A DNA stretch of 64,000 bases, taken from the IMG/VR virus record IMGVR_UViG_3300045120_000483, positions 40,882 to 104,881 of that record. One strand, written 5' to 3'. The translations under genes and the position numbers were made by a program. Source of the DNA: a virus. The notes below the pieces were generated by a model. That model ran no database searches. It was given only the letters and a program-made list of their open reading frames with translations, and was not told where the DNA came from. This document shows positions 29,218 through 47,846 of this stretch, one piece after another (within the stretch, counting starts at the first letter, position 1; every line of letters begins with the position of its first letter).

Positions 29218-29739
29218 TTATTTCACTTTCTCTTTTTTCTTACGTAAGTATTCTTCGAACTCCGTTATAACTTTATCGGTGTATTCGTTATCCGTCGAAT
29301 CTCTTGAAAAGTTGCCAGTAACCTCATCAATGGTATGAAGCTCCCGGTAATTCTTGTGTTTTATGTAATTCTGTTTCTTCTCTATATTGATCCTATTTTG
29401 AAAGGCATGGTAGGCAATCATTGTAAAATAATTAAAAATGTTATTGGTCTTGGTAATCTTGGCGGGATCAAACTTCGTAATAGCTCTGCAACAAACCTCA
29501 ATGGCATCATCCACCATTGCCTCTTTCCAATTGTTCGTATAGCGAATGAACTTCGGGTGGTTGGAAAGACCGTTACAAAGGTCAAAAATATACATTCCAA
29601 AAACGTTGGGCTGATTGGGTATGATCTGCCCGTTCTCCCGGCAGAACCGGGCCCTCTCTTGATATTCCAGAACGACTTTTTCTAGGTCTTCTTTTTGAAT
29701 GTAAAATTTGTTGGGATCAGACGGCTTCTTTTTTCTCAT
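29218..29739 (-). CDS. 55: late sigma factor gp55
   Basis: PKFIRYT..WKEAMVDDAIE..FDP...FNYFTMIAYHAF..RI..EKKQ. Confidence 0.93.
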   Translation of the reverse strand: MRKKKPSDPNKFYIQKEDLEKVVLEYQERARFCRENGQIIPNQPNVFGMYIFDLCNGLSNHPKFIRYTNNWKEAMVDDAIEVCCRAITKFDPAKITKTNNIFNYFTMIAYHAFQNRINIEKKQNYIKHKNYRELHTIDEVTGNFSRDSTDNEYTDKVITEFEEYLRKKKEKVK

Positions 29740-31189
29740 TAAGTCCTATTTGGTAAAGTTTGTAATCGTATTGTTCTTCATTATAAAGCTTAATTCTCTC
29801 CATGCTATGTTTAATGATAGTATTCGGTCTATCCTTATAAGTCATATCATCAGCAATATCATAAAGTGTACAAGTTTGACCTTTGTATTTCCTCAGACCT
29901 CTTCCGATAGACTGAAGGACCTTGATTTTTGATTTGTAGGGACTACCGAATATGATGTGTTTCAGGGTCGGAGCATCAAACCCCTCCGACACACACCCGT
30001 AACTCCCCAACAAAACAGCATTGGACTGGTTTGCCAGCTTGGCCCTGATAAGCTCCCGCTCATTCAATCCGGTACCTCCATAAATCAAATGAAGGGGACG
30101 ATCCGGGGGAAGGAGCTTCTTCAGGTCCTCATAAAGAATTTTGCCATGTTTATCCACAAGGCGGAAAAGAATTATTGTATTCCCTTTAAGGGATAATGTC
30201 AAGTTGTTTATGTATCTCTTTCGACATTCTTGAGAAAGTATATATTCTAGCTCAGCGGGATAATCCGGATGATATCCCAGACCCTTACAGATAGGGTCCG
30301 GATACCTCAGGGATAGCACTTTTATCTTAAGTTGGGCAACATCTCCCCTGTCCATCAGTTCTTTGGTAGTTACGACCTTATGAATAGGGCCCAGAAGTCC
30401 TTCTATTACCCACTGGTTCATTTCAACATCATCTAGGGTACCGGTGAAGCCATAGCGGTATTCGACGCCCCTACAGGCCTCTAAAACGTTCTTAATAGAT
30501 TGGGACTTCGCTCCATGGACCTCATCGACCATAACCAGTTCAAATTGGTTAAAATATTCCGGGGGTTCCTGATAAATCGACTGCCAAGTGCTGACCACAA
30601 TCGTTTTGTCTGTTTTTTTAGATTGTCCCTCATAGATCGGATGAACTTCCCGGGGGTCCAGGCCATATTCTTTAAAATGCCCAATTAGCTGTTCAACCAA
30701 CCCAATCCGGGGGACGATAATCAGGGTCTTCATTCCCATGAAGTATCGCACCAAAAGATAGATAATCAGGCTTTTACCGGATGCAGTCGGAGAGATATAG
30801 ACCCCCCGCTTCTCCCGGGCGGCCTTGATGAAAGTGTCTAGCTGATAATCTCTAACAGGAAAAGGAAGCTTCAGGGATTTGATGAAATCCTCTGCTTCAA
30901 CAACGGAGAACTCATTCTGAATGATAGGATTGGCAAACTCAACGGAATAACCATTATCCTTCGCGAAATGCTCCAGATGATGACGTAGCCCCGCATAAAG
31001 CCGGGACCTACCCTTCTGGAAAAGATGTAATTTTCCGTCCCAGTTCTTCAGACGGGGCGACCTCTTCCTCATGTGTTCCGCGTTGGGAACATCAAAGGTA
31101 AAGGCGTCGTAAAGCTCCAGGGCTATGTGTTCTTCGCACTCAATTCGATCATAAACTGAATTTACCGAAAATACTTTAATGTCAGACAC
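29717..31189 (-). CDS. uvsW: DNA helicase UvsW
   Basis: WDGK, RDYQ, SPTASGKS, DEVH, GFTGT, QSIGRGLR. Confidence 0.97.
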   Translation of the reverse strand: MSDIKVFSVNSVYDRIECEEHIALELYDAFTFDVPNAEHMRKRSPRLKNWDGKLHLFQKGRSRLYAGLRHHLEHFAKDNGYSVEFANPIIQNEFSVVEAEDFIKSLKLPFPVRDYQLDTFIKAAREKRGVYISPTASGKSLIIYLLVRYFMGMKTLIIVPRIGLVEQLIGHFKEYGLDPREVHPIYEGQSKKTDKTIVVSTWQSIYQEPPEYFNQFELVMVDEVHGAKSQSIKNVLEACRGVEYRYGFTGTLDDVEMNQWVIEGLLGPIHKVVTTKELMDRGDVAQLKIKVLSLRYPDPICKGLGYHPDYPAELEYILSQECRKRYINNLTLSLKGNTIILFRLVDKHGKILYEDLKKLLPPDRPLHLIYGGTGLNERELIRAKLANQSNAVLLGSYGCVSEGFDAPTLKHIIFGSPYKSKIKVLQSIGRGLRKYKGQTCTLYDIADDMTYKDRPNTIIKHSMERIKLYNEEQYDYKLYQIGLNEKKEAV

Positions 31190-33661: not shown

Positions 33662-34089
33662 TATTGTCCTTCCTTGAATCTCTCATGCTGCATTAGATTG
33701 TTGATGGCTCTGATATGCTCCGCCACCTGTCGAATGACCAGTTTGGCACACTCCACCCTTAATTCCAGGGCTGAGATGTTCTCTACAAGAACCAACACGT
33801 CTTCGTCCGCATCCACATAGGTCGGAACCTCTGTCTTCAGAATCTTTCCGGAGGCTGGCATTTTCCAACCGGGGCGGGCTTTCGCGGGCCCATACATATA
33901 ATGTTCATGCTTTTCCAACCGAAGCTTCTTCATTTGGCCTTCCAGGCCCCGAAGAGAAGCAACCGCTGAAACATATTCTCTTAAATACTTAGCATGAAGC
34001 CGAAGGGCTTCTTCTTGGGATTTTCGATAGTTAGTGGGATCGACAACGGTGTCTTTGTCCCATTGTTCTAATAGATTGGTTAGGTTCAT
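33658..34089 (-). CDS. uvsY: recombination mediator UvsY
   Basis: W.KD..VD...LHAKYL...Y.G...LKTEV.TYVDADED...F.EG. Confidence 0.9.
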   Translation of the reverse strand: MNLTNLLEQWDKDTVVDPTNYRKSQEEALRLHAKYLREYVSAVASLRGLEGQMKKLRLEKHEHYMYGPAKARPGWKMPASGKILKTEVPTYVDADEDVLVLVENISALELRVECAKLVIRQVAEHIRAINNLMQHERFKEGQY

Positions 34090-34096
34090 GTTATCA

Positions 34097-34125
34097 TTTA
34101 TATCTGAAAATCAACGGCTTGTCAA
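34097..34125 (-). promoter_or_regulatory. uvsY promoter
   Basis: TTGACA-N17-TATAAA; back-to-back with + promoter at 34138. Confidence 0.6.
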
Positions 34126-35820: not shown

Positions 35821-36450
35821 ATGAAATTATACAAGTTGACTGATGAAAATTTTCAGACCAAAAACCAGACTCAATGGGGGGAGAACGTCACCCATGAAAC
35901 TGGTGGGGAAGGTGACCTATGCGGCCCCGGTTGGCTTCATGCCTACCTGAATCCTTATCTGGCGGTCCTTCTCTCCCCTTTACATGTTTTCTTTGAGCAT
36001 CCTGTTCTTTGGGAGGCGGAGGGGGATGGGACATTCAAATACGAACGCCAGCTTAAGGTGGGTTGTACTAAACTAACAACCCTCAAACAGATACCAATGC
36101 CGGTTGTAATGACTGATGATATAGGATCAAATTTGCTATTCTTTGTGCCAAAAAGGTTTGTAATGATGAGAAGTGGAACCTATGGGCCGACAAGTGGTTG
36201 AGCGGGGAAGATAGGAGCAGTGAGGCTACTTATGCTGCCTATGCTGTTAATGCTGCTACTTATGCAGCTAATGCTGCTACTTATGCAGCTAATGCTGCTA
36301 CTTATGCTGCTGCTGCTACTTATGCTGCTGCTGCTGCTAATGCTGCTGCTAATGCTGCTACTTATGCAGCTAATGCCGCTCATTATGCTGTTGGTGCTGG
36401 TGGTGTCCTTTTCGATCTTCTTGAGATTGTCAAGGAAATGTGGTCAGAAT
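35821..36450 (+). pseudogene. frameshifted conserved phage protein with Ala-rich tail
   Basis: removing AT at 36121-36122 joins ORF 35821 to RIKFAILCAKKVCNDEKWNLWADKWLSGEDRS and the 36198 ORF. Confidence 0.7.
36226..36390 (+). repeat. low-complexity GCT/TAT/AAT repeat (AATYAAN)
   Basis: repeated TATGCAGCTAATGCTGCTACT-like units. Confidence 0.85.
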
Positions 36451-36455
36451 AAATA
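36448..36455 (+). promoter_or_regulatory. T4-type late promoter AATAAATA
   Basis: upstream of GAGGAG RBS and ATG 36473. Confidence 0.6.
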
Positions 36456-36472
36456 TACGTAGAGGAGTACTC

Positions 36473-37090
36473 ATGACCCGAAAGTTTTCCAGTTTCCTGA
36501 ACGAAGCCGCCCGAAAGTCCCTAAGCCGGGTACAATCTAAATTTGCCAATTCCAACGTGGGAATTATTACGGCCCACCGGGGTAATTACGACGACAAACC
36601 CGCCGAAGAGCACGCAGCCCATAACAATGTTCAGAATGGATACTTAGCTAAAGATATCCGTGCTCATGGTTTTGGGTTCCAACATATTCGGGGTCGTTTT
36701 ATTGAAAAACACGGTACCCCTGCGGCTCATCCGGTCGATGAGCACTCCTTCCTGGTCAGTCATCCCAACGCAAACAAGCTGAAGCACTTCCTAACGAAGC
36801 ACGGGGAGAAGTATGGTCAGGATTCGGTGCTGTTCAAGCACAAGGATTCGGAGCACGCCCACCTGATCGGGACCAAGGAAGGGGCCTTCCCCGGTAAGGG
36901 AGTAGAGCACTCCGTTGGTAAATTCCATGCCAATCGGTTTCCGGAGTTTCATAGTCTATTGCACCGGGGCGGGGATGCCAAGCCGGGGAAGACTGCCTCC
37001 ACCAAAAAAGGCTTTGCCTTTGAGGATTATGAGAACTTTGGGGTCTATATGCCGATTAGTTGGTTTTCCCGCCGGGAAGAACTCTATTAA
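36473..37090 (+). CDS. SAM-lyase (T3 SAMase)-like protein with capsid-targeting-like leader
   Basis: IITAHR..N..N..L..DIR..G.F.E..DEHSFLV..KYGQDSVLF..AHLIG aligns by eye with T3 SAMase motifs; MTRKFSSFLNE leader. Confidence 0.55.
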   Translation: MTRKFSSFLNEAARKSLSRVQSKFANSNVGIITAHRGNYDDKPAEEHAAHNNVQNGYLAKDIRAHGFGFQHIRGRFIEKHGTPAAHPVDEHSFLVSHPNANKLKHFLTKHGEKYGQDSVLFKHKDSEHAHLIGTKEGAFPGKGVEHSVGKFHANRFPEFHSLLHRGGDAKPGKTASTKKGFAFEDYENFGVYMPISWFSRREELY

Positions 37091-37161
37091 GAAATAGCAT
37101 TCTCTTCTTGACAGAACTGTTTCTTTCTGGTAGTCTGATTCTCTCTTAAAGGAGGTAAACC

Positions 37162-37368
37162 ATGGTTCAATCAATTCAAGAAAAACGTCAGTATACCGCT
37201 CTATTGGACTGTCCCCACGACGTTCTTCTGCTGAACGTTCGCAACGTCTATTTTTGTCGGGAATGTGGGGGAGAGGTATCGTTTCGGTGTGTGCGTATCG
37301 CGGTGCCGGGACAGGTTCTTCAAGAAGACGATAAGATTACCTTTTGTGAAGGGGAGAAATCCCTTTGA
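37162..37368 (+). CDS. small Cys-rich protein
   Basis: AAGGAGG RBS; promoter at about 37108. Confidence 0.6.
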   Translation: MVQSIQEKRQYTALLDCPHDVLLLNVRNVYFCRECGGEVSFRCVRIAVPGQVLQEDDKITFCEGEKSL

Positions 37369-37391
37369 GCTACTAAAAAGGAGGATATATC

Positions 37392-37634
37392 ATGTTTGGG
37401 AATAGGTCTGACCGGTATGAGGTCGGGGACGTTGTGAAGTTTCGGATATTTGACCCTGATTTTCCGGAACTGGTGGAGTGGGCGGAAGTAGTAGATGCCC
37501 TTCAACAAAATTTGGGGACCAAACCCTACAGGGTAACGAACATAGAGGACACTAAATTCAAAGCTCATCCTCAGTTTCTTACTATCAACGATGCTTTTAC
37601 TTATTCCGGCTGGTGGTTTGAACCGCTTCGATAA
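37392..37634 (+). CDS. hypothetical protein
   Basis: GAGG RBS. Confidence 0.6.
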   Translation: MFGNRSDRYEVGDVVKFRIFDPDFPELVEWAEVVDALQQNLGTKPYRVTNIEDTKFKAHPQFLTINDAFTYSGWWFEPLR

Positions 37635-37642
37635 ATAGGGAT

Positions 37643-37807
37643 ATGGGAAAGAAAAAAGCAGGACAACATGCCACTACCTGCAAGGCATATAAGGCCGGTA
37701 AGAGACGCGAAAAGAATAAGGTTCTCAAGCTACGGCGGCATTTGAAGCGTTTTGGGGATGATGCGGCGGCCCAGGCTTCTCTTGAAAAATATCAAAAAAT
37801 AGCATAA
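37643..37807 (+). CDS. 54-aa basic protein
   Basis: MGKKKAGQH...KLRRHLKRFGDDAAAQ; GATAAATA directly upstream. Confidence 0.55.
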   Translation: MGKKKAGQHATTCKAYKAGKRREKNKVLKLRRHLKRFGDDAAAQASLEKYQKIA

Positions 37808-37815
37808 AAAGACGC

Positions 37816-37844
37816 TTGACAGGGGGTTCGGTTTAGAGTAGACT
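37816..37844 (+). promoter_or_regulatory. sigma70-like promoter of ncRNA cluster
   Basis: TTGACA-N17-TAGACT. Confidence 0.6.
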
Positions 37845-37864
37845 CCAAAATATAGAGAGTGATC

Positions 37865-38082
37865 AAGAGGGGGAGAGATACCCCCGACATCCTAGTCAGG
37901 GGATTAGTCACAACCTGACACAACCCGGAGGCGTGTCATGTAACAAGAATCTCAGCTTTTGGACAGTAGTAATAGATAAAAAGTTGAAGTTTTGTGTTAT
38001 AATTGGTCGGGTGTCAAGTGTATGAGGGGGATGGAGGGCTTTAAGCTTAAGTCCCGACAGAGGCCTGTTGAAGTCCCCCTCT
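37865..38082 (+). ncRNA. candidate multi-stem ncRNA
   Basis: closing stem AAGAGGGG/CCCCTCTT; internal stems CCCGAC/GTCGGG, TGACAC/GTGTCA, TCAGCTTTT/AAAAGTTGA. Confidence 0.5.
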
Positions 38083-38091
38083 TCTAAAATC

Positions 38092-38195
38092 AGTATTCTC
38101 AAGCGGGAGGGTGTGGACCTTTACCTCCTTTCAGGTCCACCGGCCCCTAACACCCGGGTAACCACTAGTTAACCACCCTCCTACTTGAGGATATT
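38092..38195 (+). ncRNA. candidate sRNA with anti-SD loop
   Basis: 22-bp basal stem; TGGACCT-[TTACCTCCTTTC]-AGGTCCA hairpin. Confidence 0.6.
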
Positions 38196-38203
38196 CTGGA
38201 ATG

Positions 38204-38278
38204 GAAAGACAGGCCGGTCCTTTCAGCCGGGGCAGACCCTGATGAAATCTTACAATTGAACCGGGGTTCCTGTCTTTC
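38204..38278 (+). ncRNA. candidate sRNA with TCCTTTC loop
   Basis: GAAAGACAGG/CCTGTCTTTC stem; CCGG-[TCCTTTCAG]-CCGG. Confidence 0.5.
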
Positions 38279-38295
38279 TTTTTGAGGATATCATC

Positions 38296-38523
38296 ATGAA
38301 ATATGTTAGCATTAATAGCCATACCATCCGGCGAAATAAGAAGCATGGGGAGAATAATCCCCCAATTCGGATAGCCCGAACCCCCTCCGATAAGAAACCG
38401 GTCTATGCCTTTGAAGCGGAGATTGTGGGACCAGCTAAGCTCATTTATAATCCCAAGGCACCAATATTGAAGTGCGGGGCGCGGCTGGTCCTTCAATGTG
38501 AAAAAGTAAATATTCTGAAATAA
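38296..38523 (+). CDS. conserved phage hypothetical protein
   Basis: N.H.IRRN.KHG.N.PPI...YA.E..I.GP..L.Y.P..P.L.CGAR. Confidence 0.75.
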   Translation: MKYVSINSHTIRRNKKHGENNPPIRIARTPSDKKPVYAFEAEIVGPAKLIYNPKAPILKCGARLVLQCEKVNILK

Positions 38524-38848
38524 GGTACGAAATGCAGCTTCGAAAGAAAAATAAGTTACCACCCCACGTTGTCCCGGTGCATCCAGCATTTGGAGATATT
38601 CGGGCTTGGCAAACTCAGACTCATGAATATTGGATTCACCCTACAAAGGGATTGCGAAAAAGAAGGAAATAAGGCATCCAGCCTTAATTGAAAAACTAAA
38701 TAGAGGACTAGGTGAACTAGTTCTTGACATCATGAAATAAAATCTTATATAAGGGTACGATGAAAAACGCCTGTTCCATAAAAGTCAATACGAACCCCGC
38801 CCAAAAGCGGGGAGAGCGGACGTTTTCGAAGTATACTATTTAACTTTT

Positions 38849-39013
38849 CGGTTGGATCAATCCGGTCCTTCCGCAAAGGAGGGACGAAAGAGATCACAAA
38901 TCTCCCAATCCCTGTTTAAGACGTGGAAATAGGGAAATCCATTACATAAAAGCCCTCACCGGATAGACACAAAAGAATACGAATTGTGTTTATTTTTTCG
39001 GACGTGCCAACCG
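38849..39013 (+). ncRNA. candidate multi-branch ncRNA
   Basis: CGGTTGG/CCAACCG, ATCCGGT/ACCGGAT, GTCCTTCC-GCAAA-GGAGGGAC, TCCCTGTTT/AAATAGGGA; promoter at 38724. Confidence 0.55.
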
Positions 39014-39141
39014 CAATTTAAATTGCGCTGATAGGGTCATCTCTTGGGGCATACGGATAGAAACGGGTTCGTGTTCAAATTGAAATGGTAAAGCGCGGCT
39101 CCGACGCTAGTATCGGGCAACAATTACAATTCAGAGGGATT

Positions 39142-39897
39142 ATGCATAAGTTCTGGAAATCGGTTGAAAAGAACTTTAACGTTCAAGACTTGAACAATTT
39201 CAAGAATTGGGAGGATGTCCGCAAGATACCCCTTTACATTGAGCGGGACTGGGTTGACGGCTATTACCCGGACGTAAAGGCGATGATCGAAACCAACCCC
39301 AACAAGGATTGGGAGAAGGTCTATTTAGAACCGGCTCTGGGACATACGCCGGAAAGCCTGCTTCAGGCGGAATTTATTTTTGAAGGAAAAATCAGATCGA
39401 CAGGTTTCCGGTTGAAGTCCATGCATCATGGACTGACCTATGAAACGTTAGCCGGTAAATCGCTCCTCAATTATGATATGATAATTGAGTTTGGGGCGGG
39501 TATCGGAGAGTTAGCAAAAACAATTTTTGAGTTGGGTTATGGGGGTCGCTATGTTGTCGTGGACCTTCCGGTAATATCTCAGATTTCCAGTTTCTATAAT
39601 AACGGGATGACGGAGAGCGTTTCCTCAATTGACCAGATTCTTGGTATCCCGAAGAATACGTTGTTTATCGCAACGTGGTCACTCTCCGAAACTCCCTTTG
39701 GAGTCCGTAAGGTGGTGGCCGAAACTATCAAAGGTATGGACCAGTTGATTCTCTTTCAGAAGAGCTTTTTTGAGATTGAGAATTTTGAATATTTTACGGA
39801 AGAGTGGCCCCTTCTAACTAACACCTTCTTCCGGCTCAAGAAGATTTGGTTTCATGAACATCAGAACGGAAACTATTACTTAGTTTGTAAGTCGTGA
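39142..39897 (+). CDS. SAM-dependent (sugar O-)methyltransferase-like protein
   Basis: IIEFGAGIG, YVVVDLP, FIATWSLSE. Confidence 0.8.
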   Translation: MHKFWKSVEKNFNVQDLNNFKNWEDVRKIPLYIERDWVDGYYPDVKAMIETNPNKDWEKVYLEPALGHTPESLLQAEFIFEGKIRSTGFRLKSMHHGLTYETLAGKSLLNYDMIIEFGAGIGELAKTIFELGYGGRYVVVDLPVISQISSFYNNGMTESVSSIDQILGIPKNTLFIATWSLSETPFGVRKVVAETIKGMDQLILFQKSFFEIENFEYFTEEWPLLTNTFFRLKKIWFHEHQNGNYYLVCKS

Positions 39898-39899
39898 GA

Positions 39900-40048
39900 G
39901 GGCGTCGTCTTGTCGGTTGGTTTCTTCCATTGTTACCCAATCGGCGGTCATCCGGCAGAGAGAGGATGATAAATGTAAGGGGACAAAAGGTATTTCTCCG
40001 GAGTTGTGTATGTTGAAGTAAACGGAGAGTGTATAGTACAAACTCCCT
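39900..40048 (+). ncRNA. candidate structured RNA
   Basis: GTCGGTTGG/CCAATCGGC, TCATCC/GGATGA, GGAGTT..GT/ACAAACTCC; possible TTCTCCG/CGGAGAG pairing. Confidence 0.4.
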
Positions 40049-40051
40049 TAT

Positions 40052-40126
40052 GCTAGTTTAGCTTAAATGGTAGAGCATCTGATTCGTATCCAGATAGGTT
40101 CCTTTTCGATAAGGAAACTAGCACCA
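40052..40126 (+). tRNA. tRNA-Thr(CGT)
   Basis: cloverleaf, loop TTCGTAT, ACCA. Confidence 0.8.
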
Positions 40127-40133
40127 ATTTAAT

Positions 40134-40209
40134 GCCGATTTATCCTTAGTGGTTAAAGGTCTGCCCTTGTAACGCAGGTACGCGGGTTCGATTCCTGCAA
40201 TCGGCTCCA
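40134..40209 (+). tRNA. tRNA-Thr(TGT)
   Basis: cloverleaf, loop CTTGTAA, TCCA. Confidence 0.85.
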
Positions 40210-40216
40210 GTTCAAT

Positions 40217-40292
40217 GGGATCATAGTTTAGCGGTCAGAATCCCGCCCTTTCAAGGCGTGAGACCGGGGTTCGAATCCCCGTGGTCCTACCA
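40217..40292 (+). tRNA. tRNA-Glu(TTC)
   Basis: cloverleaf, loop CTTTCAA, ACCA. Confidence 0.9.
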
Positions 40293-40325
40293 TTCGAAGA
40301 AATGCATGAAATCATAAATACTTTC

Positions 40326-40688
40326 ATGCGTAATCAAATTAAATTAAAAGAATACAATCGACAACATTATTTGAAAATTCGGGTTTATCGTCGTGATGAA
40401 GTATTGGACCGTCAGCGTTTTATTAGAGGCAGAGTTAGGGAACTTAAAGTTGAACTTGGGTGTTCGCTTTGTGGATACAATAAATGTGCCAGGGCTCTCC
40501 AATTTCATCATTTAAGTGGAAAAGATGAAAATGTAGCAAGAATGGCGGCTCAAGGAAGATCGATGAAGAGAATTCTTGAAGAGATAGATAAGTGTGTTTG
40601 TGTATGTGCTAATTGTCATGCTGAATTACATGATGAAAAAGAGAAAAATAAAGCTCCGAAAGCTAACTTAGTAGAAGCGCCAGTCTGA
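40326..40688 (+). mobile_element. HNH endonuclease (putative homing endonuclease)
   Basis: CSLCGY..ALQFHH..EIDKC..VCANCHAELH; CATAAATA upstream. Confidence 0.85.
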
Positions 40689-40728
40689 AGAATTGGATGA
40701 GTGGGGGCGGAACCTACACGGGGCACCA
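40653..40728 (+). tRNA. tRNA-Phe(GAA)
   Basis: loop CTGAAGA; atypical T loop GCGGAAC; ACCA. Confidence 0.8.
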
Positions 40729-40732
40729 TTTT

Positions 40733-40826
40733 TGATCGGTAGCTTAAGCAAAGCGTATCTCACCAAAGGCCATACTGTGGTTTTTGGGGAGGTAAGATGG
40801 AGGTCCAAGCCCTCCCTGATCAGCCA
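40733..40826 (+). ncRNA. tRNA-like RNA with elongated anticodon arm
   Basis: TGATCGG/CTGATCA+GCCA, D and T arms, about 16-bp anticodon-position helix. Confidence 0.7.
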
Positions 40827-40831
40827 ATTTA

Positions 40832-40903
40832 TGTCCGATGTAGCTTAAGCGTAAAGCAGACCTCCAAGGGAGGATCGTTGAGGGTTCAAGCCCCTCCCGG
40901 GCA
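40832..40903 (+). ncRNA. degenerate tRNA-like RNA
   Basis: TGTCCG/CGGGCA, same D arm as 40733 element, T arm GAGGG-TTCAAGC-CCCTC, 3-nt anticodon-position loop, no CCA. Confidence 0.55.
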
Positions 40904-40968
40904 GAAACAAAACCGTGTAAGCCGGTGGCAAAGAGCGGGTTATCCCGCCGCTAGCTAAATCATTTTAA

Positions 40969-41042
40969 CGCGGGGTAGAGGAGTAGTTCCTTGCCAGCCT
41001 CATAAGCTGGAGACATCGGTGCAAGTCCGGTCCACGCAACCA
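40969..41042 (+). tRNA. initiator-type tRNA-fMet(CAT)
   Basis: CGCGGGG...CGCAACCA with C1xA72; loop CTCATAA. Confidence 0.85.
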
Positions 41043-41047
41043 TTAAT

Positions 41048-41131
41048 GGGCAAGGCGCGGTCTGGGAACCCAGAGAGTCTGTAAAACTCACGCTTATAGC
41101 TAGAGAGGTTCGATTCCTCTTTTGCCCACCA
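41048..41131 (+). tRNA. tRNA-Tyr(GTA)
   Basis: loop CTGTAAA, variable arm, ACCA. Confidence 0.85.
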
Positions 41132-41132
41132 T

Positions 41133-41211
41133 TTTCTACTCAGGTTCGAATCCTGACGTTCAAGGACAGTCTATAGGCGAACGAACACTTGCGGAGATCG
41201 GTCAGTAGAAA
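41133..41211 (+). ncRNA. circularly permuted tRNA-like RNA 1
   Basis: TTTCTAC/GTAGAAA terminal stem; T arm TCAGG-TTCGAAT-CCTGA first; then capped CGTTC/GAACG; weak D arm. Confidence 0.55.
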
Positions 41212-41220
41212 TTCATTTAT

Positions 41221-41297
41221 GGGACTGTAGCTCAATTGGGAGAGCAACGCTTTTGCAAAGCGAAGGTTGTGGGTTCAAGTCCCACCTGTTTCCACCA
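41221..41297 (+). tRNA. tRNA-Ala(TGC)
   Basis: G3:U70, loop TTTGCAA, ACCA. Confidence 0.85.
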
Positions 41298-41301
41298 TTA
41301 T

Positions 41302-41362
41302 GGAGGGGTACCGGCCGCCTCCGGATACGCTGGTCTCAAAGACCGTGAAAAGACCTCCACCA
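41302..41362 (+). ncRNA. NCCA-ended mini tRNA-like RNA (family A, copy 1)
   Basis: GGAGG/CCTCC-ACCA; homologous to 51672..51727. Confidence 0.55.
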
Positions 41363-41386
41363 AATTCTTATTATGGGAGAAAAGGA

Positions 41387-41830
41387 ATGAACTGGACGGA
41401 TAATTATCCAGAGTTTACGGATACAGCTAATTGCTTTATACGGGCAACTAGTATAGCCCTAGAGAAATCATATGAAGACTCTTACAAAGAAGTTTCATTT
41501 CTCATTGAAAAGAATAATGATCCGCCAGTGAGCCCCAATCAGGGTGTATATCTAGATGTTATGATTAACTACATGGAATCAGTAGGTTGGAAATGGAATG
41601 GAGTATCCCTCTACAGACCACAACGAAATGATGTTTTAGTGGGGGGTTATCTCAGGGATGTCCCCAAAAAAGGTTGTTTCGTTGTCCTAATTTTTCTTCC
41701 TGATTTGAAACAACCGAAACAACGTTATGATGGTCATGCCCTTGCTGTAATTGATGGCACTATTCATGAACATTCTGTTTTTAAAAAAGTTTTTGATGAG
41801 CACGCCCCTTTGTGGGGATATTTCTCATAG
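41387..41830 (+). CDS. papain-like (C39-type) peptidase-like protein
   Basis: NCFIRATSIAL...Y...GHALAVIDG; AAGGA RBS. Confidence 0.65.
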   Translation: MNWTDNYPEFTDTANCFIRATSIALEKSYEDSYKEVSFLIEKNNDPPVSPNQGVYLDVMINYMESVGWKWNGVSLYRPQRNDVLVGGYLRDVPKKGCFVVLIFLPDLKQPKQRYDGHALAVIDGTIHEHSVFKKVFDEHAPLWGYFS

Positions 41831-41848
41831 CAAAGTTTCCACCATTTC

Positions 41849-41923
41849 GCCTCTGTATTTTTAATGGTAGAAGTCATTCTTGGTACGAATGGAGATGGCG
41901 TTCGATTCGCCACTGAGGCACCA
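41849..41923 (+). tRNA. tRNA-Thr(GGT)
   Basis: loop TTGGTAC, ACCA. Confidence 0.85.
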
Positions 41924-41953
41924 TAGAAAAAGGAAAAGTTCAGAAGTAGGCAA

Positions 41954-42023
41954 GGGGGCTAGCCTCCGGTCGGTACTCTAGACCGGTGACCAACACAAAT
42001 CGTTGGTCTGATAAATGGCCCTC
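41954..42023 (+). ncRNA. candidate three-way-junction RNA
   Basis: GGGGGCTA/TGGCCCTC enclosing CCGGTC/GACCGG and GACCAAC/GTTGGTC. Confidence 0.45.
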
Positions 42024-42031
42024 AAATTTAA

Positions 42032-42115
42032 GGTGGATGGGGTCCAAGGTGGACACACGGCTTTGAATACCGTCCCTCCGAAAGGATGAGAGTTCGATTC
42101 TTTCATCCACCGCCA
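42032..42115 (+). tRNA. tRNA-Ser(TGA)
   Basis: loop TTTGAAT, long variable arm, GCCA. Confidence 0.85.
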
Positions 42116-42117
42116 GT

Positions 42118-42233
42118 TTCTTCGAAGATCACTGTAGTAGGTGTGGGTTCATGTTCCTTCTAGACTATAAGGAGCTAGCCGTACTAACAGGTGTCTAGAC
42201 CGATGTGGGCGATAATGTTAACCTTTCGAAGAA
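42118..42233 (+). ncRNA. candidate pseudoknotted RNA
   Basis: TTCTTCGAAG/TTTCGAAGAA; loop CTAGAC complementary to GTCTAG. Confidence 0.45.
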
Positions 42234-42240
42234 TTCAATT

Positions 42241-42322
42241 GCAGATATGGTGAAATGGAAAACACACTACGCTTAGAACGTAGCGCGAAAGCTTGCGGGT
42301 TCAAGTCCTGCTATCTGCACCA
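42241..42322 (+). tRNA. tRNA-Leu(TAG)
   Basis: loop CTTAGAA, variable arm, ACCA. Confidence 0.9.
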
Positions 42323-42328
42323 TAAATA
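42321..42328 (+). promoter_or_regulatory. late promoter CATAAATA overlapping tRNA CCA end
   Basis: upstream of GAGG RBS of 42352. Confidence 0.6.
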
Positions 42329-42351
42329 CTAAAAAAACAGAGGAAAATGAA

Positions 42352-43197
42352 ATGAAAAAATTGAGAGAAATCCTGAATGAAAAATTTATTAAAGATATGT
42401 CCTCTGTGGAACATAAGAGACATCGACAATCTGAAGCTGAAGGGAGCCAGTGGCATCAGGATCACCCCGTAAGTCATGAAAATATAATCAATCATTTTAA
42501 TGCTGCCACTTCGGAGGAGCATCATAATGGGATGAGTTGGTATAAAGATGCTCATCATACGATGAAGGCTTTAGCTCATGACACCAAAACTCCCCATCAT
42601 CAGATGGCGGGTCTAATTTCAAATTATTCGCCCCAGACACATTGGTTTACAAATATCCATACTGCCGCAAAAGTTGCCCGGGAGAAGAAAGCTGTGGGCG
42701 GCCCCGGATCAGGAGTTTTTGCTTCAGGTCAACAAAAACATGCTGCACATAGGATGTTGCAGGGGGAACATTATAATAACGTTCTTGTTGGACATAAGGT
42801 GAGACATTTTGCTCATTTAATTGAGCATGGGGGCAATGAACATCCCGATCACCCCCATGTTGTGTTGGATCGTCATGCACATTCGGTGGCATCAGGAAGC
42901 CGTATTACTGATGCGGCATTTAGTCAAGCCGGACTCAAATCCAAGAAAAAATATGCTGATATGAGTAATGCCTATATAAAAGCGGCTCATCATCTATCGG
43001 AAATTCACAAACAAACAATTCATCCTCATCAAGTTCAGGCTGTAACTTGGCTGGTACGTCAACGGTTGAATGCTCAAGAAGATAAAGGGCAGGCGAAAAA
43101 CAAAAGTAATAAGGCAAAAGATACATGGCACAAATATGCGGAGGAACATCATCCAAGTGTGATTGGTCAAGAGCCCGGAACAGGTTATGGCCATTGA
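42352..43197 (+). CDS. HhH-type DNA glycosylase-like (DUF7178-like) protein with capsid-targeting-like leader
   Basis: GMSWY..A..SPQTHW..N..GHKVRHF..LDRH..Y..AA..PHQVQAVTW; MKKLREILNE leader. Confidence 0.6.
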   Translation: MKKLREILNEKFIKDMSSVEHKRHRQSEAEGSQWHQDHPVSHENIINHFNAATSEEHHNGMSWYKDAHHTMKALAHDTKTPHHQMAGLISNYSPQTHWFTNIHTAAKVAREKKAVGGPGSGVFASGQQKHAAHRMLQGEHYNNVLVGHKVRHFAHLIEHGGNEHPDHPHVVLDRHAHSVASGSRITDAAFSQAGLKSKKKYADMSNAYIKAAHHLSEIHKQTIHPHQVQAVTWLVRQRLNAQEDKGQAKNKSNKAKDTWHKYAEEHHPSVIGQEPGTGYGH

Positions 43198-43206
43198 TTC
43201 AACTAA

Positions 43207-43282
43207 GCTTCACTAGCCCAGCGGTAGAGGCAGCAGATTTAAATCCTGTTAAGGCCGGGTCCGAATCCCGGGTGAAGCACCA
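43207..43282 (+). tRNA. tRNA-Leu(TAA), short variable loop
   Basis: loop TTTAAAT, 76 nt, ACCA. Confidence 0.8.
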
Positions 43283-43288
43283 TTTAAT

Positions 43289-43364
43289 GGCTCTTTAGAC
43301 AAACCGGCATAGTCGCTTCCCTCAAAAAGAAGAGTTCTGGATTCGAATTCCAGGAGAGCTACCA
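43289..43364 (+). tRNA. tRNA-Leu(CAA), short variable loop
   Basis: loop CTCAAAA, 76 nt, ACCA. Confidence 0.8.
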
Positions 43365-43373
43365 AAATATCTC

Positions 43374-43402
43374 TTGACATGTTCTGACACTTTGGTTATC
43401 AT
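43374..43402 (+). promoter_or_regulatory. sigma70-like promoter of second RNA block
   Basis: TTGACA-N17-TATCAT. Confidence 0.65.
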
Positions 43403-43410
43403 ATTGAAAG

Positions 43411-43552
43411 TGGATGGGAAGCGCGTTGTGTTTTCGTCTTTCAACAAAAGCGGTCCCGTCCATTCTTGTTCTTAATTGTGGAATACCTTGCTGTTCAAGG
43501 GCTTATGCAAGGGATAGACTTTGTAAGAAGGCGGTATTCCACAGTTAAGAAC
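43411..43552 (+). ncRNA. two long hairpin RNAs
   Basis: TGGATGGGA/TCCCGTCCA; 21-bp TGTTCTTAATTGTGGAATACC/GGTATTCCACAGTTAAGAACA. Confidence 0.5.
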
Positions 43553-43646
43553 ATGGTGTTCCTGGCTGGCTTAATCTAAGCTTCCCACAAGTCGCTTAGA
43601 ACGTTTTGTGGAACGTAAGGAAGGGTTCGAATCTCTTCGACACCAT
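43553..43646 (+). ncRNA. tRNA-like RNA with elongated arm bearing a Leu(TAG)-type loop
   Basis: TGGTGTT/GACACCA, GCTT/AAGC, CCACAAG.CG-CTTAGAA-CG.TTTGTGG, GTTCGAATC T loop. Confidence 0.6.
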
Positions 43647-43725
43647 CGTAATAAGAACGGGATGATATCTTAACCCGAATAACGGCGAATCCTTCGGAAA
43701 AGTCGTTTCGTTCTTTCTTTTTAAT

Positions 43726-43801
43726 GCCCCTTTAGCTCAGTGACCAGAGCGGTTGTTTTACATACAACGGGTCGGGAGTTTGATTCTCTCAAGGGGTACC
43801 A
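43726..43801 (+). tRNA. tRNA-Val(TAC)
   Basis: loop TTTACAT, ACCA. Confidence 0.9.
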
Positions 43802-43806
43802 GAGAT

Positions 43807-44000
43807 AACGGTGTTGTCGCACCGTAGCCCGGTTTGACGGGCTTAAAGGATAGCAGTAGCGATACTGTCAAAGTAAGGAAGCTTACAGCCTTACACCGGA
43901 GCAATCCGGCCCATTCAAGCAGGTCCGGTTCACCCGAAAGGGCAGTCATACTAGACTGTGGCGGGAAGCAGGACGATGAGGAGACAAGACCCGAAAGGGA
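43807..44000 (+). ncRNA. candidate GNRA-rich structured RNA
   Basis: eight hairpins with GCGA, GCAA and two GAAA tetraloops; TTTGAC/GTCAAA pseudoknot. Confidence 0.55.
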
Positions 44001-44009
44001 TAAGAATAT

Positions 44010-44083
44010 AGCCTAGTGCCGGAATGGTTACGGGACCGCCTGCAAAGCGGGAGACAGGAGTTCGATCCTCCTCTAGGCTTCCA
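44010..44083 (+). tRNA. tRNA-Cys(GCA)
   Basis: loop CTGCAAA, U73, CCA. Confidence 0.9.
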
Positions 44084-44195
44084 GCACACCGATGAAGATA
44101 TTCGTAGCGTTGTGGACCCGTGGCGAACGAATAAAAATAAGGGAGCAAATTTCAGTACGCGACTGACCCACAAGTTAACGGTTTTCCAATAGAAT

Positions 44196-44270
44196 GCATC
44201 TTTAGCTCAGAGGAAGAGTGTCGCATCGACATTGCGAAGGTCCGGATATCGTAATTCCGAAGATGTACCA
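44196..44270 (+). tRNA. tRNA-Val(GAC)
   Basis: loop TCGACAT (C33), T loop ATCGTAA, ACCA. Confidence 0.75.
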
Positions 44271-44291
44271 CCTTAAACAAAAGGAAACATT

Positions 44292-44441
44292 ATGTTTGAA
44301 GCTCTGTTGATGACAATTTTAATTGCTGTTGTTATTGTGGTTATAGCGGAATGGTTTTCTCCGGATGCCCGTCTTACATGGATTGTTCGTTTGTTGGTTT
44401 TTGTTTGGTTGATTTACAAGCTTCTTCCGTTTTTGAAGTAA
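44292..44441 (+). CDS. 49-aa two-TM membrane protein
   Basis: AAGGA RBS; MFEALLMTILIAVVIVVIAEWFSPDARLTWIVRLLVFVWLIYKLLPFLK. Confidence 0.6.
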   Translation: MFEALLMTILIAVVIVVIAEWFSPDARLTWIVRLLVFVWLIYKLLPFLK

Positions 44442-44448
44442 AGTTAAT

Positions 44449-44527
44449 GTGGGAGTAGGGGAGTCTGGCCGTCCCCTCTTGCCTTGGAAGCAAGAAATCG
44501 TGAGTTCGAATCTCACTTCCCGCACCA
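44449..44527 (+). tRNA. tRNA-Pro(TGG)
   Basis: loop CTTGGAA, ACCA. Confidence 0.85.
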
Positions 44528-44535
44528 TTTAGGAG

Positions 44536-44730
44536 TTGATAATGTTTTGGAAAAGCCTTACACCCCCTGAAGCCGTTGAGTATTATAATCTTCTACAAAA
44601 GATTAGCATTTGGTCGGGCCACTGTGAGACTTGTCGAAAGGCAAAGTCTCCGGTACAAGAAGACTTGCGACCAACGGACCAAGAGTTTATGCGTTGGAAT
44701 GAACTGTTCTGGAAATTTTGGACAAAATAA
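44536..44730 (+). CDS. hypothetical protein
   Basis: AGGAG RBS. Confidence 0.5.
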   Translation: MIMFWKSLTPPEAVEYYNLLQKISIWSGHCETCRKAKSPVQEDLRPTDQEFMRWNELFWKFWTK

Positions 44731-44770
44731 AACATAATTCTAGCTAATCGGAGAAGCGACGTTAGTTTAT

Positions 44771-44847
44771 GGGGGTATAGTTCAAAGGTAGAATAGGCGC
44801 TTGATAGGCGTTTGATCGTTCGGGTTCGATTCCCCGTATCCCTACCA
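44771..44847 (+). tRNA. tRNA-Ile(GAT)
   Basis: loop TTGATAG, ACCA. Confidence 0.85.
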
Positions 44848-44866
44848 GTTTTTTAAAAGCAATCGT

Positions 44867-45199
44867 CTATTTAGCGTCGTCTGGCGACGTGGAATAATCG
44901 TCTGGAGACAACTCCACAAGAGGTTGGGGTGGCGCTTCGGGAGTGTGCTCTGTCTGAATCCTAGCCATTGCCAGGGCATCGGAAGTTGATCGTAAAGTAA
45001 AAGCTAGCTTAGCTAGGTCTTTGTTATATTTACTAATACCGGCCTCAATGCCTTTGTCAATTTCTTTCTGGATGTCAACCCTGTCTTCTTGACAGTTTTT
45101 ATAGTATAAATCGTCACACTCCCGGTCCCTTCGGGCTAGTTCTCTATCATGCAGGATAATTGCTTCTAGGGTGGCGACGATCATTTGTCGAAAGTTCAT
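44867..45199 (-). CDS. hypothetical late protein
   Basis: GATAAATA and GAGG upstream. Confidence 0.55.
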   Translation of the reverse strand: MNFRQMIVATLEAIILHDRELARRDRECDDLYYKNCQEDRVDIQKEIDKGIEAGISKYNKDLAKLAFTLRSTSDALAMARIQTEHTPEAPPQPLVELSPDDYSTSPDDAK

Positions 45200-45231
45200 T
45201 TAATTTCCCTCTCTAAATCAATATTTATCGC

Positions 45232-45260
45232 TTGACATTCCTTATAATATAAAGTATCAT
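45232..45260 (+). promoter_or_regulatory. sigma70-like promoter (near-leaderless HD gene)
   Basis: TTGACA-N17-TATCAT. Confidence 0.65.
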
Positions 45261-45267
45261 TATTGGA

Positions 45268-45825
45268 ATGAATAGAGATTTTACCAGAATCAACGATGCC
45301 TGTATGTACGCCGGTCTGGCCCATGCATCCATTGGGCAGGTACGTAAGTACAGTAAAGAGTCCTATATCGTTCATCCCATGCGGGTTTGCCGCCTTCTTG
45401 ATGAAGTGGGGGAAACCGATGATGTTCTTATTGGCGCTCTTCTTCATGATGTGGTAGAAGATACGCCGATTACGTTGGCGGAAATTCAGGCCAAATTTGG
45501 GATGGAAATTGCCAAATATGTGGAAGGGATGACAGATGTCTCTAAACCTGAGGATGGTAACAGAGCCGTTCGTAAAACGATTGATAGGGAGCATTCTTGG
45601 GAAGCGTGTGGAGAATCCCAGACGATCAAGTGTGCGGACCTTATCGACAACACAGAGGACATTACTTCCCACGATAAAGATTTCTCTCAGGTTTACCTCC
45701 GGGAAAAGAGACTACTTCTTCCGGGTCTGACCAAAGCCAATCCAGCCCTTATTCAAAAGGCCTGGGAGACATTGGAAGCCGCTGAAATCAAAATTTTTGG
45801 AATTATTCAAGGAGAAAGAACATGA
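45268..45825 (+). CDS. HD-domain small alarmone hydrolase ((p)ppGpp hydrolase, Mesh1/SpoT-like)
   Basis: AH..GQVRKY..YIVHP..ALLHDVVEDT..IKCADLIDN. Confidence 0.9.
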   Translation: MNRDFTRINDACMYAGLAHASIGQVRKYSKESYIVHPMRVCRLLDEVGETDDVLIGALLHDVVEDTPITLAEIQAKFGMEIAKYVEGMTDVSKPEDGNRAVRKTIDREHSWEACGESQTIKCADLIDNTEDITSHDKDFSQVYLREKRLLLPGLTKANPALIQKAWETLEAAEIKIFGIIQGERT

Positions 45826-46052
45826 AGGTTGACGTGAAGGTGACTAGTGCGGGGAACGGCTCCCGGGCATATCCTAAAATTAGAAGGAGTATTGCCTACC
45901 AATACTTGGTTTGGTTCTCCACCCCTACAGTGGGGATAGTTGTATCCCAAGGTACGGGAACACAACTTCCCGGAAAATATTCAAATGATTGGGCCCCGGA
46001 GTGTTTTGAAGAGTGGACGGGAGAGGTCGTTTTAACGCTGACACAGGAGTAA
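45822..46052 (+). CDS. hypothetical protein
   Basis: coupled ORF; resembles 46056 and 53375 small proteins. Confidence 0.55.
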   Translation: MKVDVKVTSAGNGSRAYPKIRRSIAYQYLVWFSTPTVGIVVSQGTGTQLPGKYSNDWAPECFEEWTGEVVLTLTQE

Positions 46053-46055
46053 ATC

Positions 46056-46307
46056 ATGACATTGAGAGTCAAAGCTACAGAGGCCGAAGCTAAGAAAGCT
46101 GAGTTAGCGTTTCCCTGCCTGATGAGGTCCAAGAGCGATGGTTGGATTATGTTAGTTACGGGGGTAGAGAATAATATTGTTAGTGGTATGGTTGTTTCCG
46201 ATCCTAATAAGTATTGGTCTTCTCCGATCTTGAGATATTCGAATCGAATGACCGCTATTTCGACTCTTGAACCCTGGGTTGGTAAGGTAGAGTTTATTTC
46301 AGAGTAA
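46056..46307 (+). CDS. hypothetical protein
   Basis: AGGAG RBS. Confidence 0.55.
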   Translation: MTLRVKATEAEAKKAELAFPCLMRSKSDGWIMLVTGVENNIVSGMVVSDPNKYWSSPILRYSNRMTAISTLEPWVGKVEFISE

Positions 46308-46311
46308 GCCG

Positions 46312-46422
46312 GATGGTGGACAGTGAGGATGCATTCCCTGAGTGGTCAAAAGGGCCGGTCTTTTAAACCGATGCGAAAGCTACGTGGGTTCGAATCCCCC
46401 TGCATCCTCACTGTCCATTATC
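46312..46422 (+). tRNA. atypical tRNA-Lys(TTT)-like RNA (class II body, 22-bp extended acceptor helix, no CCA)
   Basis: core 46327..46408; loop CTTTTAA; GC-GAAA-GC variable arm. Confidence 0.7.
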
Positions 46423-47250
46423 ATATAATTTATAGAGGTCTTTGATTTTAAGACCGGTTTTGTTTTCTACATAACTGAAAACCTCCTGGAGGTCCGGTAG
46501 ATAAAGAATTTGGATGGGTTCTGTTACTCCTGAAAGTTTAAAGTCATCAACGGGAGATTTGAAGCCTTTGATTTCGATTAATTTTCCGTTTACCCGAAAG
46601 TCTGGGTAAAAGTTATGTTCTCTTTGAGTTATAGGATTGAAGTATAGATAAGGGGCCTTGTTTCTAGTAATGGAAATTTGGTGTTCTGTGCAAAAAATAT
46701 AGTAAGCTATTTCGTATGTGGAATTACAAAAAAATCCTTGATAGTATCCCTGTTTTCCTCTCCCCGCCCGGTGTCGAAAGCATCCAGGTTTTCCTTTTTT
46801 AGTTATGCTGATATTCTTCGCAGAAAGCGCCTTATTGCACTTAAGAGAACATGTCTTTAAACGTCGGTGTGTATATGGAAGAGGTACCTTGCATTCTTGA
46901 CATATTGAGGGAGATTGCAAATAAAGCTTTTTTGTGATTAAAGATTTTTGTTGTCCTGATATTCTAGAAATTTCCGAAAGACGTTTTTTAGTTTCTGATG
47001 AATGTTGCCACCCGCTTTCTTCTCTCTTTTTCATATTAGCTTTAGCTCCACAAGATTTAGAACAATACCGATATAAGCGACTTTTGTAGGAAATAGGATT
47101 CTGACAAAATTCACAGATTTTTGGGTTTAAAGCGTATTTTTGTTGACTACGCTCAGAAAGCCTGATACCATGGCAAGTAGGAGAACAAATTTTACTTCGC
47201 GGGTCTTGAGGGGTAAAAGGGGCTGAACAAACAAGACAAGAAATTGTCAT
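46408..47250 (-). mobile_element. PD-(D/E)XK homing endonuclease with Zn-ribbon repeats
   Basis: three CxxC..CS..C repeats; STYE..FYPDF..LIEIKG; AT-rich; in tRNA cluster. Confidence 0.8.
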
Positions 47251-47310
47251 TTCTAGAATTAACTCCGGAGTTGATAGGTTACAACTCTATTTATCTTCCA
47301 AAATATAGAT

Positions 47311-47387
47311 GGATCAATGGCTAGACTGGCAATGCAACGGACTCTTAATCCGTCCCCATGGGGGTTCGATTCCCCCTTGATCCTCCA
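47311..47387 (+). tRNA. tRNA-Lys(CTT)
   Basis: loop CTCTTAA, TCCA. Confidence 0.85.
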
Positions 47388-47394
47388 AAATTAT

Positions 47395-47458
47395 GCGGAG
47401 TTCCGATCTGGAAGTAACAAGAACTAATAGGATTTATCCTGATTAGTCCTCCGCACCA
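47395..47458 (+). ncRNA. ACCA-ended mini tRNA-like RNA
   Basis: GCGGAG/CTCCGC-ACCA with two internal hairpins and no anticodon loop. Confidence 0.55.
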
Positions 47459-47463
47459 AGTTT

Positions 47464-47539
47464 ACCCGTAGATGCTGCTAGTTGTGGCAGAATGATTGTC
47501 AATCATTTGAGTGGAGGGCAGAACTCCATACGGGTGCCA
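47464..47539 (+). tRNA. tRNA-Asp(GTC)
   Basis: loop TTGTCAA, G73, atypical T loop GCAGAAC. Confidence 0.75.
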
Positions 47540-47544
47540 TTTAA

Positions 47545-47601
47545 GGGGTCGGGTATATTGGTACCAGATAAGATGCGGTAAAAGTCCGTCTCACCCCACC
47601 A
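47545..47601 (+). ncRNA. anticodon-armless mini tRNA-like RNA
   Basis: GGGGT/ACCCC-ACCA; D-like GGTA-TATTGG-TACC; T-like GCGG-TAAAAGT-CCGT. Confidence 0.6.
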
Positions 47602-47606
47602 AGTCA

Positions 47607-47675: not shown

Positions 47676-47768
47676 GCTCCTACCTGGGTATAGCTTTCCC
47701 CTAAGAGTGGTTTCTGGGGGTAAAGGGTGAGCGTCCCATAAAAAACGGAACCCACTAATTTTGAGCTA

Positions 47769-47842: not shown

Positions 47843-47846
47843 GTTA

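Follow-up and report, generated by a model that had tools for sequence, protein, structure and literature searches.

A structured ORF-free gap of a T4-type phage with an anti-Shine-Dalgarno motif in a predicted hairpin loop

Can a phage RNA that presents a copy of the 16S rRNA 3' tail in a hairpin loop act on translation initiation, or is such a motif an incidental part of a structured leader? The question is raised by a short locus in the 64,000-nucleotide stretch of viral DNA analyzed here (the window). An earlier note, made from the letters of this DNA alone, had described the locus as a phage small RNA (sRNA) displaying the anti-Shine-Dalgarno (anti-SD) motif, and had proposed that it works as a trans-acting SD sponge or as a mimic of the 16S tail. 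The analysis reported below partly confirms that observation and partly supports its interpretation.

The gap, its genes, and its promoters

The window makes up the right-hand 64 kb of an IMG/VR virus record of 104.9 kb, which was judged 59% complete. The phage is of the T4 type, and its DNA polymerase shows no more than 39% identity to those of GenBank phages, among which Synechococcus myoviruses come nearest. Genes lie on the - strand up to approximately 34 kb and on the + strand beyond, where ARAGORN predicted an island of 26 tRNA genes (40051-55261, + strand) that begins 1.8 kb downstream of the hairpin element. RegA, the translational repressor of T4, has a homolog in the window, and RegB was looked for in the 59%-complete record and not found. 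The element itself occupies a gap of 488 nt without an ORF (37808-38295), which separates a 54-aa ORF from a 75-aa ORF, both on the + strand. The genes referred to below are the following:

12533-15052, - strand: family B DNA polymerase
16817-17242, - strand: RegA homolog (PF01818, E 1.4e-36)
29717-31189, - strand: UvsW
36440-37090, + strand: S-adenosylmethionine (SAM) lyase-family ORF (PF23780, E 5e-10)
ATG at 37643, + strand: 54-aa ORF, upstream border of the gap
38296-38523, + strand: 75-aa ORF (phrog_8676, function unknown)
38532-38672, + strand: 46-aa ORF

None of the ORFs that can be read in the gap, on either strand, matched PHROGs or Pfam; this includes two - strand ORFs of 64 aa and 152 aa. 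With no family match for any gap ORF, the earlier placement of an RNA-level structure in an ORF-free gap is supported. A tRNA, tmRNA, or tRNA-like identity was ruled out, since ARAGORN reported nothing in the gap and Rfam gave no tRNA or tmRNA match.

Several features of the surroundings were recorded along the way. No tmRNA was found in the 64-kb window. Two IMG/VR phage contigs carry a permuted (two-piece) tmRNA with the tag ANDESYALAA (L005:1051-1421 and L007:634-1018, both + strand), and each has a 46% identical SAM-lyase-like gene approximately 4 kb downstream of the tmRNA. Homologs of this SAM-lyase-like ORF were found in many uncultured phages. Downstream of the 46-aa ORF lies a second structured block without ORFs (38673-39084, 412 nt, + strand); it has its own TTGACA promoter at 38724, folds to -98.8 kcal/mol (z -2.9), and contains a hairpin at 38867-38891 in which CCUUCC is paired with GGAGGG.

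The earlier note had placed an early-type promoter at 37816, and such a site is present:

37816-37844, + strand: sigma-70-like early-type promoter TTGACA-N17-TAGACT, with transcription predicted to start near 37851

The site belongs to a recurrent class in this phage, cTTGACA-N17-TAnnnT, with approximately 12 sites at the front of + strand units in the + arm, most of whose units begin in this way; members of the class are found at 34138, 35757, 37108, 37816, 38724, 43374, 45232, 49933, 52473, and 61152. Its -10 hexamer, TAG(A/T)CT, is common to the sites at 37108 and at -28024. No promoter-like site was found from 38200 to 38295, where the element gives way to the 75-aa ORF; the first one downstream of the element is that at 38724, past the 46-aa ORF. 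Transcription of the 75-aa and 46-aa ORFs therefore has to pass through the element, which would make the latter at least their 5' leader. The window nowhere contains the strict T4 late promoter TATAAATA, and it shows no enrichment of ATAAATA. The sequence GATAAATA occurs at 37631-37645 (+ strand), 5 nt before the ATG of the 54-aa ORF (37643), which is the position of a T4-type late promoter in front of a leaderless gene.

Fold of the element, its strand, and the downstream ribosome-binding site

Folding of the + strand of the gap yields three successive domains, the second of which carries the loop in question:

37865-38083, + strand: domain A, a multi-hairpin region closed by a perfect 10-bp helix (37865-37874/38074-38083); -74.4 kcal/mol, z -3.4
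38091-38198, + strand: domain B, a four-way junction on a 22-bp basal stem, with two further small hairpins
38113-38140, + strand: hairpin 1 of domain B, displaying the anti-SD motif; 8-bp stem and 12-nt loop UUACCUCCUUUC (38121-38132), z -5.1
38204-38278, + strand: domain C, a long stem-loop followed by CUUUUU; -29.4 kcal/mol, z -3.4

The hairpin at the core of the earlier claim was found as described, with TGGACCT at 38114-38120, the loop TTACCTCCTTTC at 38121-38132, and AGGTCCA at 38133-38139; its stem reaches 8 bp once a flanking G-C pair is counted (38113-38120/38133-38140). The basal stem likewise has the 22 bp attributed to it, as 13 + 9 pairs interrupted by one 1x1 mismatch (C38104/A38184). 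Domain B folds to -45.5 kcal/mol (z -5.4 against mononucleotide shuffles), and the + strand of 38085-38285 to -78.2 kcal/mol (z -4.3 against dinucleotide shuffles). Loop 1, centered on a 10-nt identity with the 16S tail, is as openly displayed as had been proposed: in five transcript contexts of 200 to 490 nt, the probability of being unpaired was 0.95 for the loop and 1.00 for its CCUCC. Among 734 sliding windows of the + arm (34-56 kb), the element ranks seventh by z-score, and several other windows fold as well or better. The 110-nt windows at 39400-39509, 36190-36389, and 43450-43559 (+ strand) reach z-scores of -4.5 to -5.7, equal to or better than that of the element; one of them falls inside a 270-aa ORF. 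Domain A also contains an extended -10 motif, TGTTATAAT, at 37995-38003.

The earlier note had further claimed a second stem-loop at 38204-38278 that would present a second anti-SD loop. The structure is real and corresponds to domain C, but its proposed loop, TCCTTTCAG, is mostly paired (mean probability of being unpaired, 0.37), and a fold that opens it costs 3.3 kcal/mol relative to the best fold. Nine nucleotides of loop 1, UCCUUUCAG, do recur exactly at 38218-38226, without the CCUCC core. As far as the folding models go, there is one robust anti-SD loop, not two. Domain C resembles a terminator, but its interior measures 55 nt, and a 75-nt branched stem with a U-tract is not a compact terminator; compact intrinsic terminators are scarce on the + strand. 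Given read-through into the downstream ORFs, domain C cannot be a fully efficient terminator.

The choice of strand deserves separate consideration. The 200-nt core (38085-38285) folds about equally well on the - strand (-78.7 kcal/mol, z -3.6), where both loops read CUGAAAGGA. Both points speak for a - strand feature, either the ribosome-binding site (RBS) of a - strand gene or an RNA with GGA loops (GAAAGGAGGUAA, AAAGGAC) resembling the CsrB/RsmZ sponges. We nonetheless regard a - strand feature as very improbable. Read on that strand, the loop motif is GAAAGGAGGTAA, and no start codon lies 5 to 12 nt downstream; the first start is a TTG 21 nt after AGGAGGT, and the motif is thus not the RBS of a real - strand gene, a possibility that the earlier note had itself named. 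The - strand ORFs lack PHROG and Pfam matches, as described above, all genes from 34 kb onward lie on the + strand, and no good - strand promoter leads into the element. The two candidate GGA loops have neither a promoter or gene context nor an Rfam match. When the whole gap is folded, the + strand is better by 10.7 kcal/mol and contains 15 G-U pairs versus 10 on the - strand; two G-U pairs of the domain B basal stem become A-C mismatches on the - strand. Because the neighboring genes are all on the + strand, an early-type promoter lies upstream, and the whole-gap fold is better on this strand, it is the + strand that is likely to be transcribed across the gap. The fold itself is real, and it very probably works at the RNA level on the + strand.

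The same folds bear on the 75-aa ORF. The 10-mer TTGAGGATAT is present exactly twice in the 64 kb:

38185-38194, + strand: copy 1 of TTGAGGATAT, 3' strand of the domain B basal stem
38282-38291, with the RBS region extending to 38298, + strand: copy 2 of TTGAGGATAT, at the SD (GAGGA) and AUG of the 75-aa ORF

Bases 38189-38196 are able to pair alternatively with the RBS of this ORF. With the downstream sequence added, the fold of lowest energy opens the outer basal stem and pairs 38189-38196 with 38284-38291, thereby extending the domain C helix over the SD of the 75-aa ORF, for which the probability of being unpaired is 0.16. This sequestered state (-85.1 kcal/mol) is favored over the open one (-77.7 kcal/mol) by 7.4 kcal/mol. 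Growing transcripts, when folded in silico, acquire the complete basal stem of domain B first; for a time, therefore, the RBS of the 75-aa ORF would be free before being buried. Loop 1 was also considered as the anti-SD of this ORF and ruled out, as its duplex with the RBS has only 4 bp (-5.6 kcal/mol).

Searches for relatives and likeness to known systems

Searches with Rfam covariance models at E values up to 10, covering 36000-41000 and 37800-38310 on both strands, returned noise only (e.g., SOX2OT), and neither blastn nor megablast found a match in 50,697 phage records. Neighboring genes were used as anchors in IMG/VR. From the 75-aa ORF, a single unrelated phage of high GC content was reached; the SAM-lyase-like ORF led to five loci at 46% identity, and UvsW to 80 loci at no more than 48% identity, all without the element; the closest IMG/VR relatives are thus those at 48% (UvsW) and 46% (SAM-lyase-like ORF). 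The 270-aa ORF, used singly and as an alignment, found nothing in IMG/VR or in GTDB genomes. The only closer relatives appeared on two Logan contigs, one of 11,383 bp that encodes P0002, a SAM-lyase-like protein with 76% identity, and one of 11,546 bp that encodes P0043, which is 59% identical to the 270-aa ORF. In other T4-like phages, homologs of the 75-aa ORF abut the preceding gene, with no structured leader in between.

Queries made from the element itself gave a similar picture. No homolog was found with nhmmer over the related loci, and a covariance model of domain B, built from its single sequence and run on 48 loci (708 kb) and five whole related records, recovered only itself. The exact 24-mer pattern of the loop has zero matches in IMG/VR. 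The 16-mer pattern has 47 matches there, none with a comparable flanking stem (at most 5 pairs), and most of them read like an RBS and its start codon in reverse complement. A 20-mer gave one chance match in JGI metagenomes, within an apparent bacterial coding region. The genome contains no repeats of the element elsewhere.

An orphan sequence without any homolog found, whose 200-nt core folds nearly equally on both strands, could be a nonfunctional relic or an element acting at the DNA level, such as a decayed gene, the remnant of a mobile element, or a site of replication or recombination. We consider this unlikely. The long and nested stems are intact and include G-U pairs on the + strand; there are no genomic repeats and no residual coding signal; and the element sits inside a promoter-headed transcription unit.

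Mechanistically, the closest known systems are the alphaproteobacterial sRNAs with unpaired anti-SD motifs, which include AbcR1/2, the alpha-r14 "cuckoo" family (NfeR1), and MmgR (PMC7143759, PMC4152367). In alpha-r14 and AbcR (alpha-r15), two or three hairpin loops present the motif in unpaired form (PMC7143759). The phage element resembles these RNAs in that a CU-rich anti-SD sequence is held single stranded in a loop, suited to pairing with an RBS and to blocking translation. The bacterial sRNAs, however, are short (approximately 77 to 120 nt), chromosomal, and Hfq dependent, and they have their own terminators; in alpha-r14, all three loops carry the motif. The phage element, in contrast, has one robust loop on a four-way junction within a putative phage operon leader of approximately 430 nt. 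Membership in alpha-r14 or AbcR (alpha-r15) was rejected: no Rfam family matched at E values up to 10, and only loop 1 is open.

By position, the closest counterparts are rnaC and rnaD of T4 (species 1 and 2, AF158101), which are likewise noncoding, stable-looking, adjacent to tRNA genes in a T4-type phage, and of unknown function. Like them, the phage element would probably be cut from a longer transcript. The differences are nonetheless considerable, since rnaC has a tRNA-like T arm, neither RNA has an anti-SD loop, and no sequence similarity links them to the element, which lies outside the tRNA array, 1.8 kb upstream. Kinship was accordingly rejected, as neither sequence nor loop is held in common.

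A third comparison concerns the buried RBS and the long helices. Phage early leaders processed by RNase III include the early sites of T7 and the N leader of lambda, in which cleavage frees a buried RBS. By analogy, these leaders appear to be the closest systems for this part of the element, which shares with them intergenic helices of approximately 22 bp in what would be an early polycistronic RNA, one of them burying the SD of the gene that follows. At the T7 and lambda sites, however, there is just one hairpin, with neither a four-way junction nor an anti-SD loop, and their sequences are unrelated to that of the element.

Possible partners of the loop and meaning for the phage

If loop 1 pairs in trans, two ORFs immediately upstream offer the best partners among real RBSs:

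37148-37164, + strand: RBS and AUG of a 68-aa ORF, with AAAGGAGGTAA (37148-37158), an 11-nt perfect complement of loop 1
37377-37394, + strand: RBS and AUG of an 80-aa ORF, with AAAGGAGG, an 8-nt complement of loop 1 (-12.2 kcal/mol)

The RBS of the 68-aa ORF is the longest complement of loop 1 in the 105-kb record (11 bp, -15.6 kcal/mol) and lies 6 nt before the ATG; that of the 80-aa ORF is the second-best real RBS. Both ORFs are part of the unit that the promoter at 37108 heads and that immediately precedes the element. The predicted pairing involves an accessible seed complementary to a target RBS, a trait of trans-acting anti-SD RNAs. The match to the 68-aa ORF exceeds a generic strong SD by three bases only, with a chance estimated at ~0.1 or more. 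As evidence of targeting, the complementarity to the two RBSs is suggestive but weak.

How often such motifs arise by chance was estimated in several ways. The 9-mer ACCTCCTTT occurs once per strand in the 64 kb, and its near-matches number 19, against 21.6 expected. CCTCC is found in the loop of 3 of the 313 + strand hairpins (stem of at least 7 bp) in the 105-kb record, which is about the chance level; a recurrent theme of anti-SD loops within this genome was rejected on that ground. For a single genome, a hairpin loop with a 10-nt match to the 16S tail is a rare event, estimated at ~0.2 to 1%. Across a large scan, such a match is expected many times, and the motif alone is therefore no proof of function.

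It is accordingly possible, though on balance somewhat unlikely, that the motif arose by chance in a structured leader or a processing or stability module whose loop has no role with SDs. The lack of enrichment of near-matches and the chance-level count of CCTCC loops fit this well, as do the many equally structured windows of the RNA-rich + arm and the lack of a conserved copy in the nhmmer, covariance-model, and IMG/VR and JGI pattern searches. They have to be set against the rarity per genome of a 10-nt 16S-tail identity in an always-open 12-nt loop, and against the nature of the best partner, a real and strong RBS at a distance of less than 1 kb.

The opposite reading takes the element as a stand-alone, abundant, trans-acting mimic of the 16S 3' tail that would cover SDs on a global scale, serving host shut-off or timing, and would thereby favor leaderless phage mRNAs. 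Its appeal lies partly in the accessible loop, the upstream promoter, and the U-tract after domain C, and partly in the leaderless genes themselves. The earlier note had described several phage genes as near-leaderless, and this holds for the DNA polymerase and several others: at several TTGACA-N17-TAnnnT promoters, the ATG of a long ORF lies 5 to 8 nt after the -10 hexamer. The promoters close to an ATG are the following:

15052-15088, - strand: within the window
34086-34125, - strand: within the window
45232-45270, + strand: within the window
-434, -6455, and -12536 (window coordinates), all - strand: left of the window

The ORFs predicted to be leaderless are the DNA polymerase (839 aa) and ORFs of 185, 342, 207, and 236 aa. 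Starts placed in this way include those at 15052 (DNA polymerase) and 45268, together with three others located left of the window. To judge from promoter positions, early mRNAs with an ATG 5 to 8 nt past the -10 hexamer would lack a leader, an unusual trait in a T4-type phage, and several early genes, including that of the DNA polymerase, would be immune to SD masking. Other early units have long leaders with strong SDs.

Most of the remaining evidence runs against a global mimic, and we think it decidedly unlikely. Strong SDs of the GGAGG type are common in this phage, 50 of the 177 ORFs giving -8 kcal/mol or better with an anti-SD probe, and a global SD sponge would strike these genes of the phage as well. 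Only one anti-SD loop is robust, the second being mostly paired. On account of these two points, a global sponge is the least likely version of the earlier proposal. A stoichiometric sponge would, moreover, need very high abundance, and the searches made revealed no conservation. A stand-alone sRNA is doubtful in its own right, since no other promoter was found for the 75-aa and 46-aa ORFs and read-through is required, and domain C is no compact intrinsic terminator. What stands of the sRNA or SD-sponge reading is the accessible anti-SD RNA loop; the second open loop does not.

Our preferred explanation, which we hold tentatively, is that the element is a structured early leader of the 75-aa and 46-aa ORFs, whose loop, if functional, pairs with strong SDs such as those of the 68-aa and 80-aa ORFs. 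An early RNA of approximately 430 nt, free of ORFs and read from the + strand, would start at the promoter at 37816 and enter the 75-aa and 46-aa ORFs. During transcription, the 22-bp stem of domain B would form first and leave the RBS of the 75-aa ORF briefly free; the last helix would then extend over the SD and AUG of this ORF (38189-38196 with 38284-38291), so that at equilibrium translation would be held off. Both long helices (~22 bp each) are of a size cut by RNase III, and cleavage could release domain B as a stable RNA of approximately 110 nt. From what is known of phage early leaders, we infer that cutting by RNase III might intervene before the RBS of the 75-aa ORF is buried. The loop UUACCUCCUUUC on domain B would be single stranded throughout, and, if it is functional, its likeliest pairing would be with strong SDs of the AAAGGAGG type. 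The first candidate targets would be the 68-aa and 80-aa ORFs of the upstream operon, whose translation might be damped.

Little is known of phage-encoded RNAs that influence translation initiation. Should the motif prove incidental, the element would be an ordinary structured early leader; should the loop be functional, a T4-type virus would be using an anti-SD RNA alongside the RegA repressor. A bolder idea, which we judge quite improbable, is that a phage RNA with the 16S 3' tail masks SDs of host mRNAs at large or of a subset of the phage's own early genes with strong SDs, while its many leaderless early mRNAs, including that of the DNA polymerase, are still translated; if true, the phage would carry a switch between translation that depends on SDs and translation of leaderless mRNAs. 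Its combination of strongly SD-led and apparently leaderless early genes is unusual, and the phage may thus offer a natural system for the partitioning of ribosomes between classes of mRNA.
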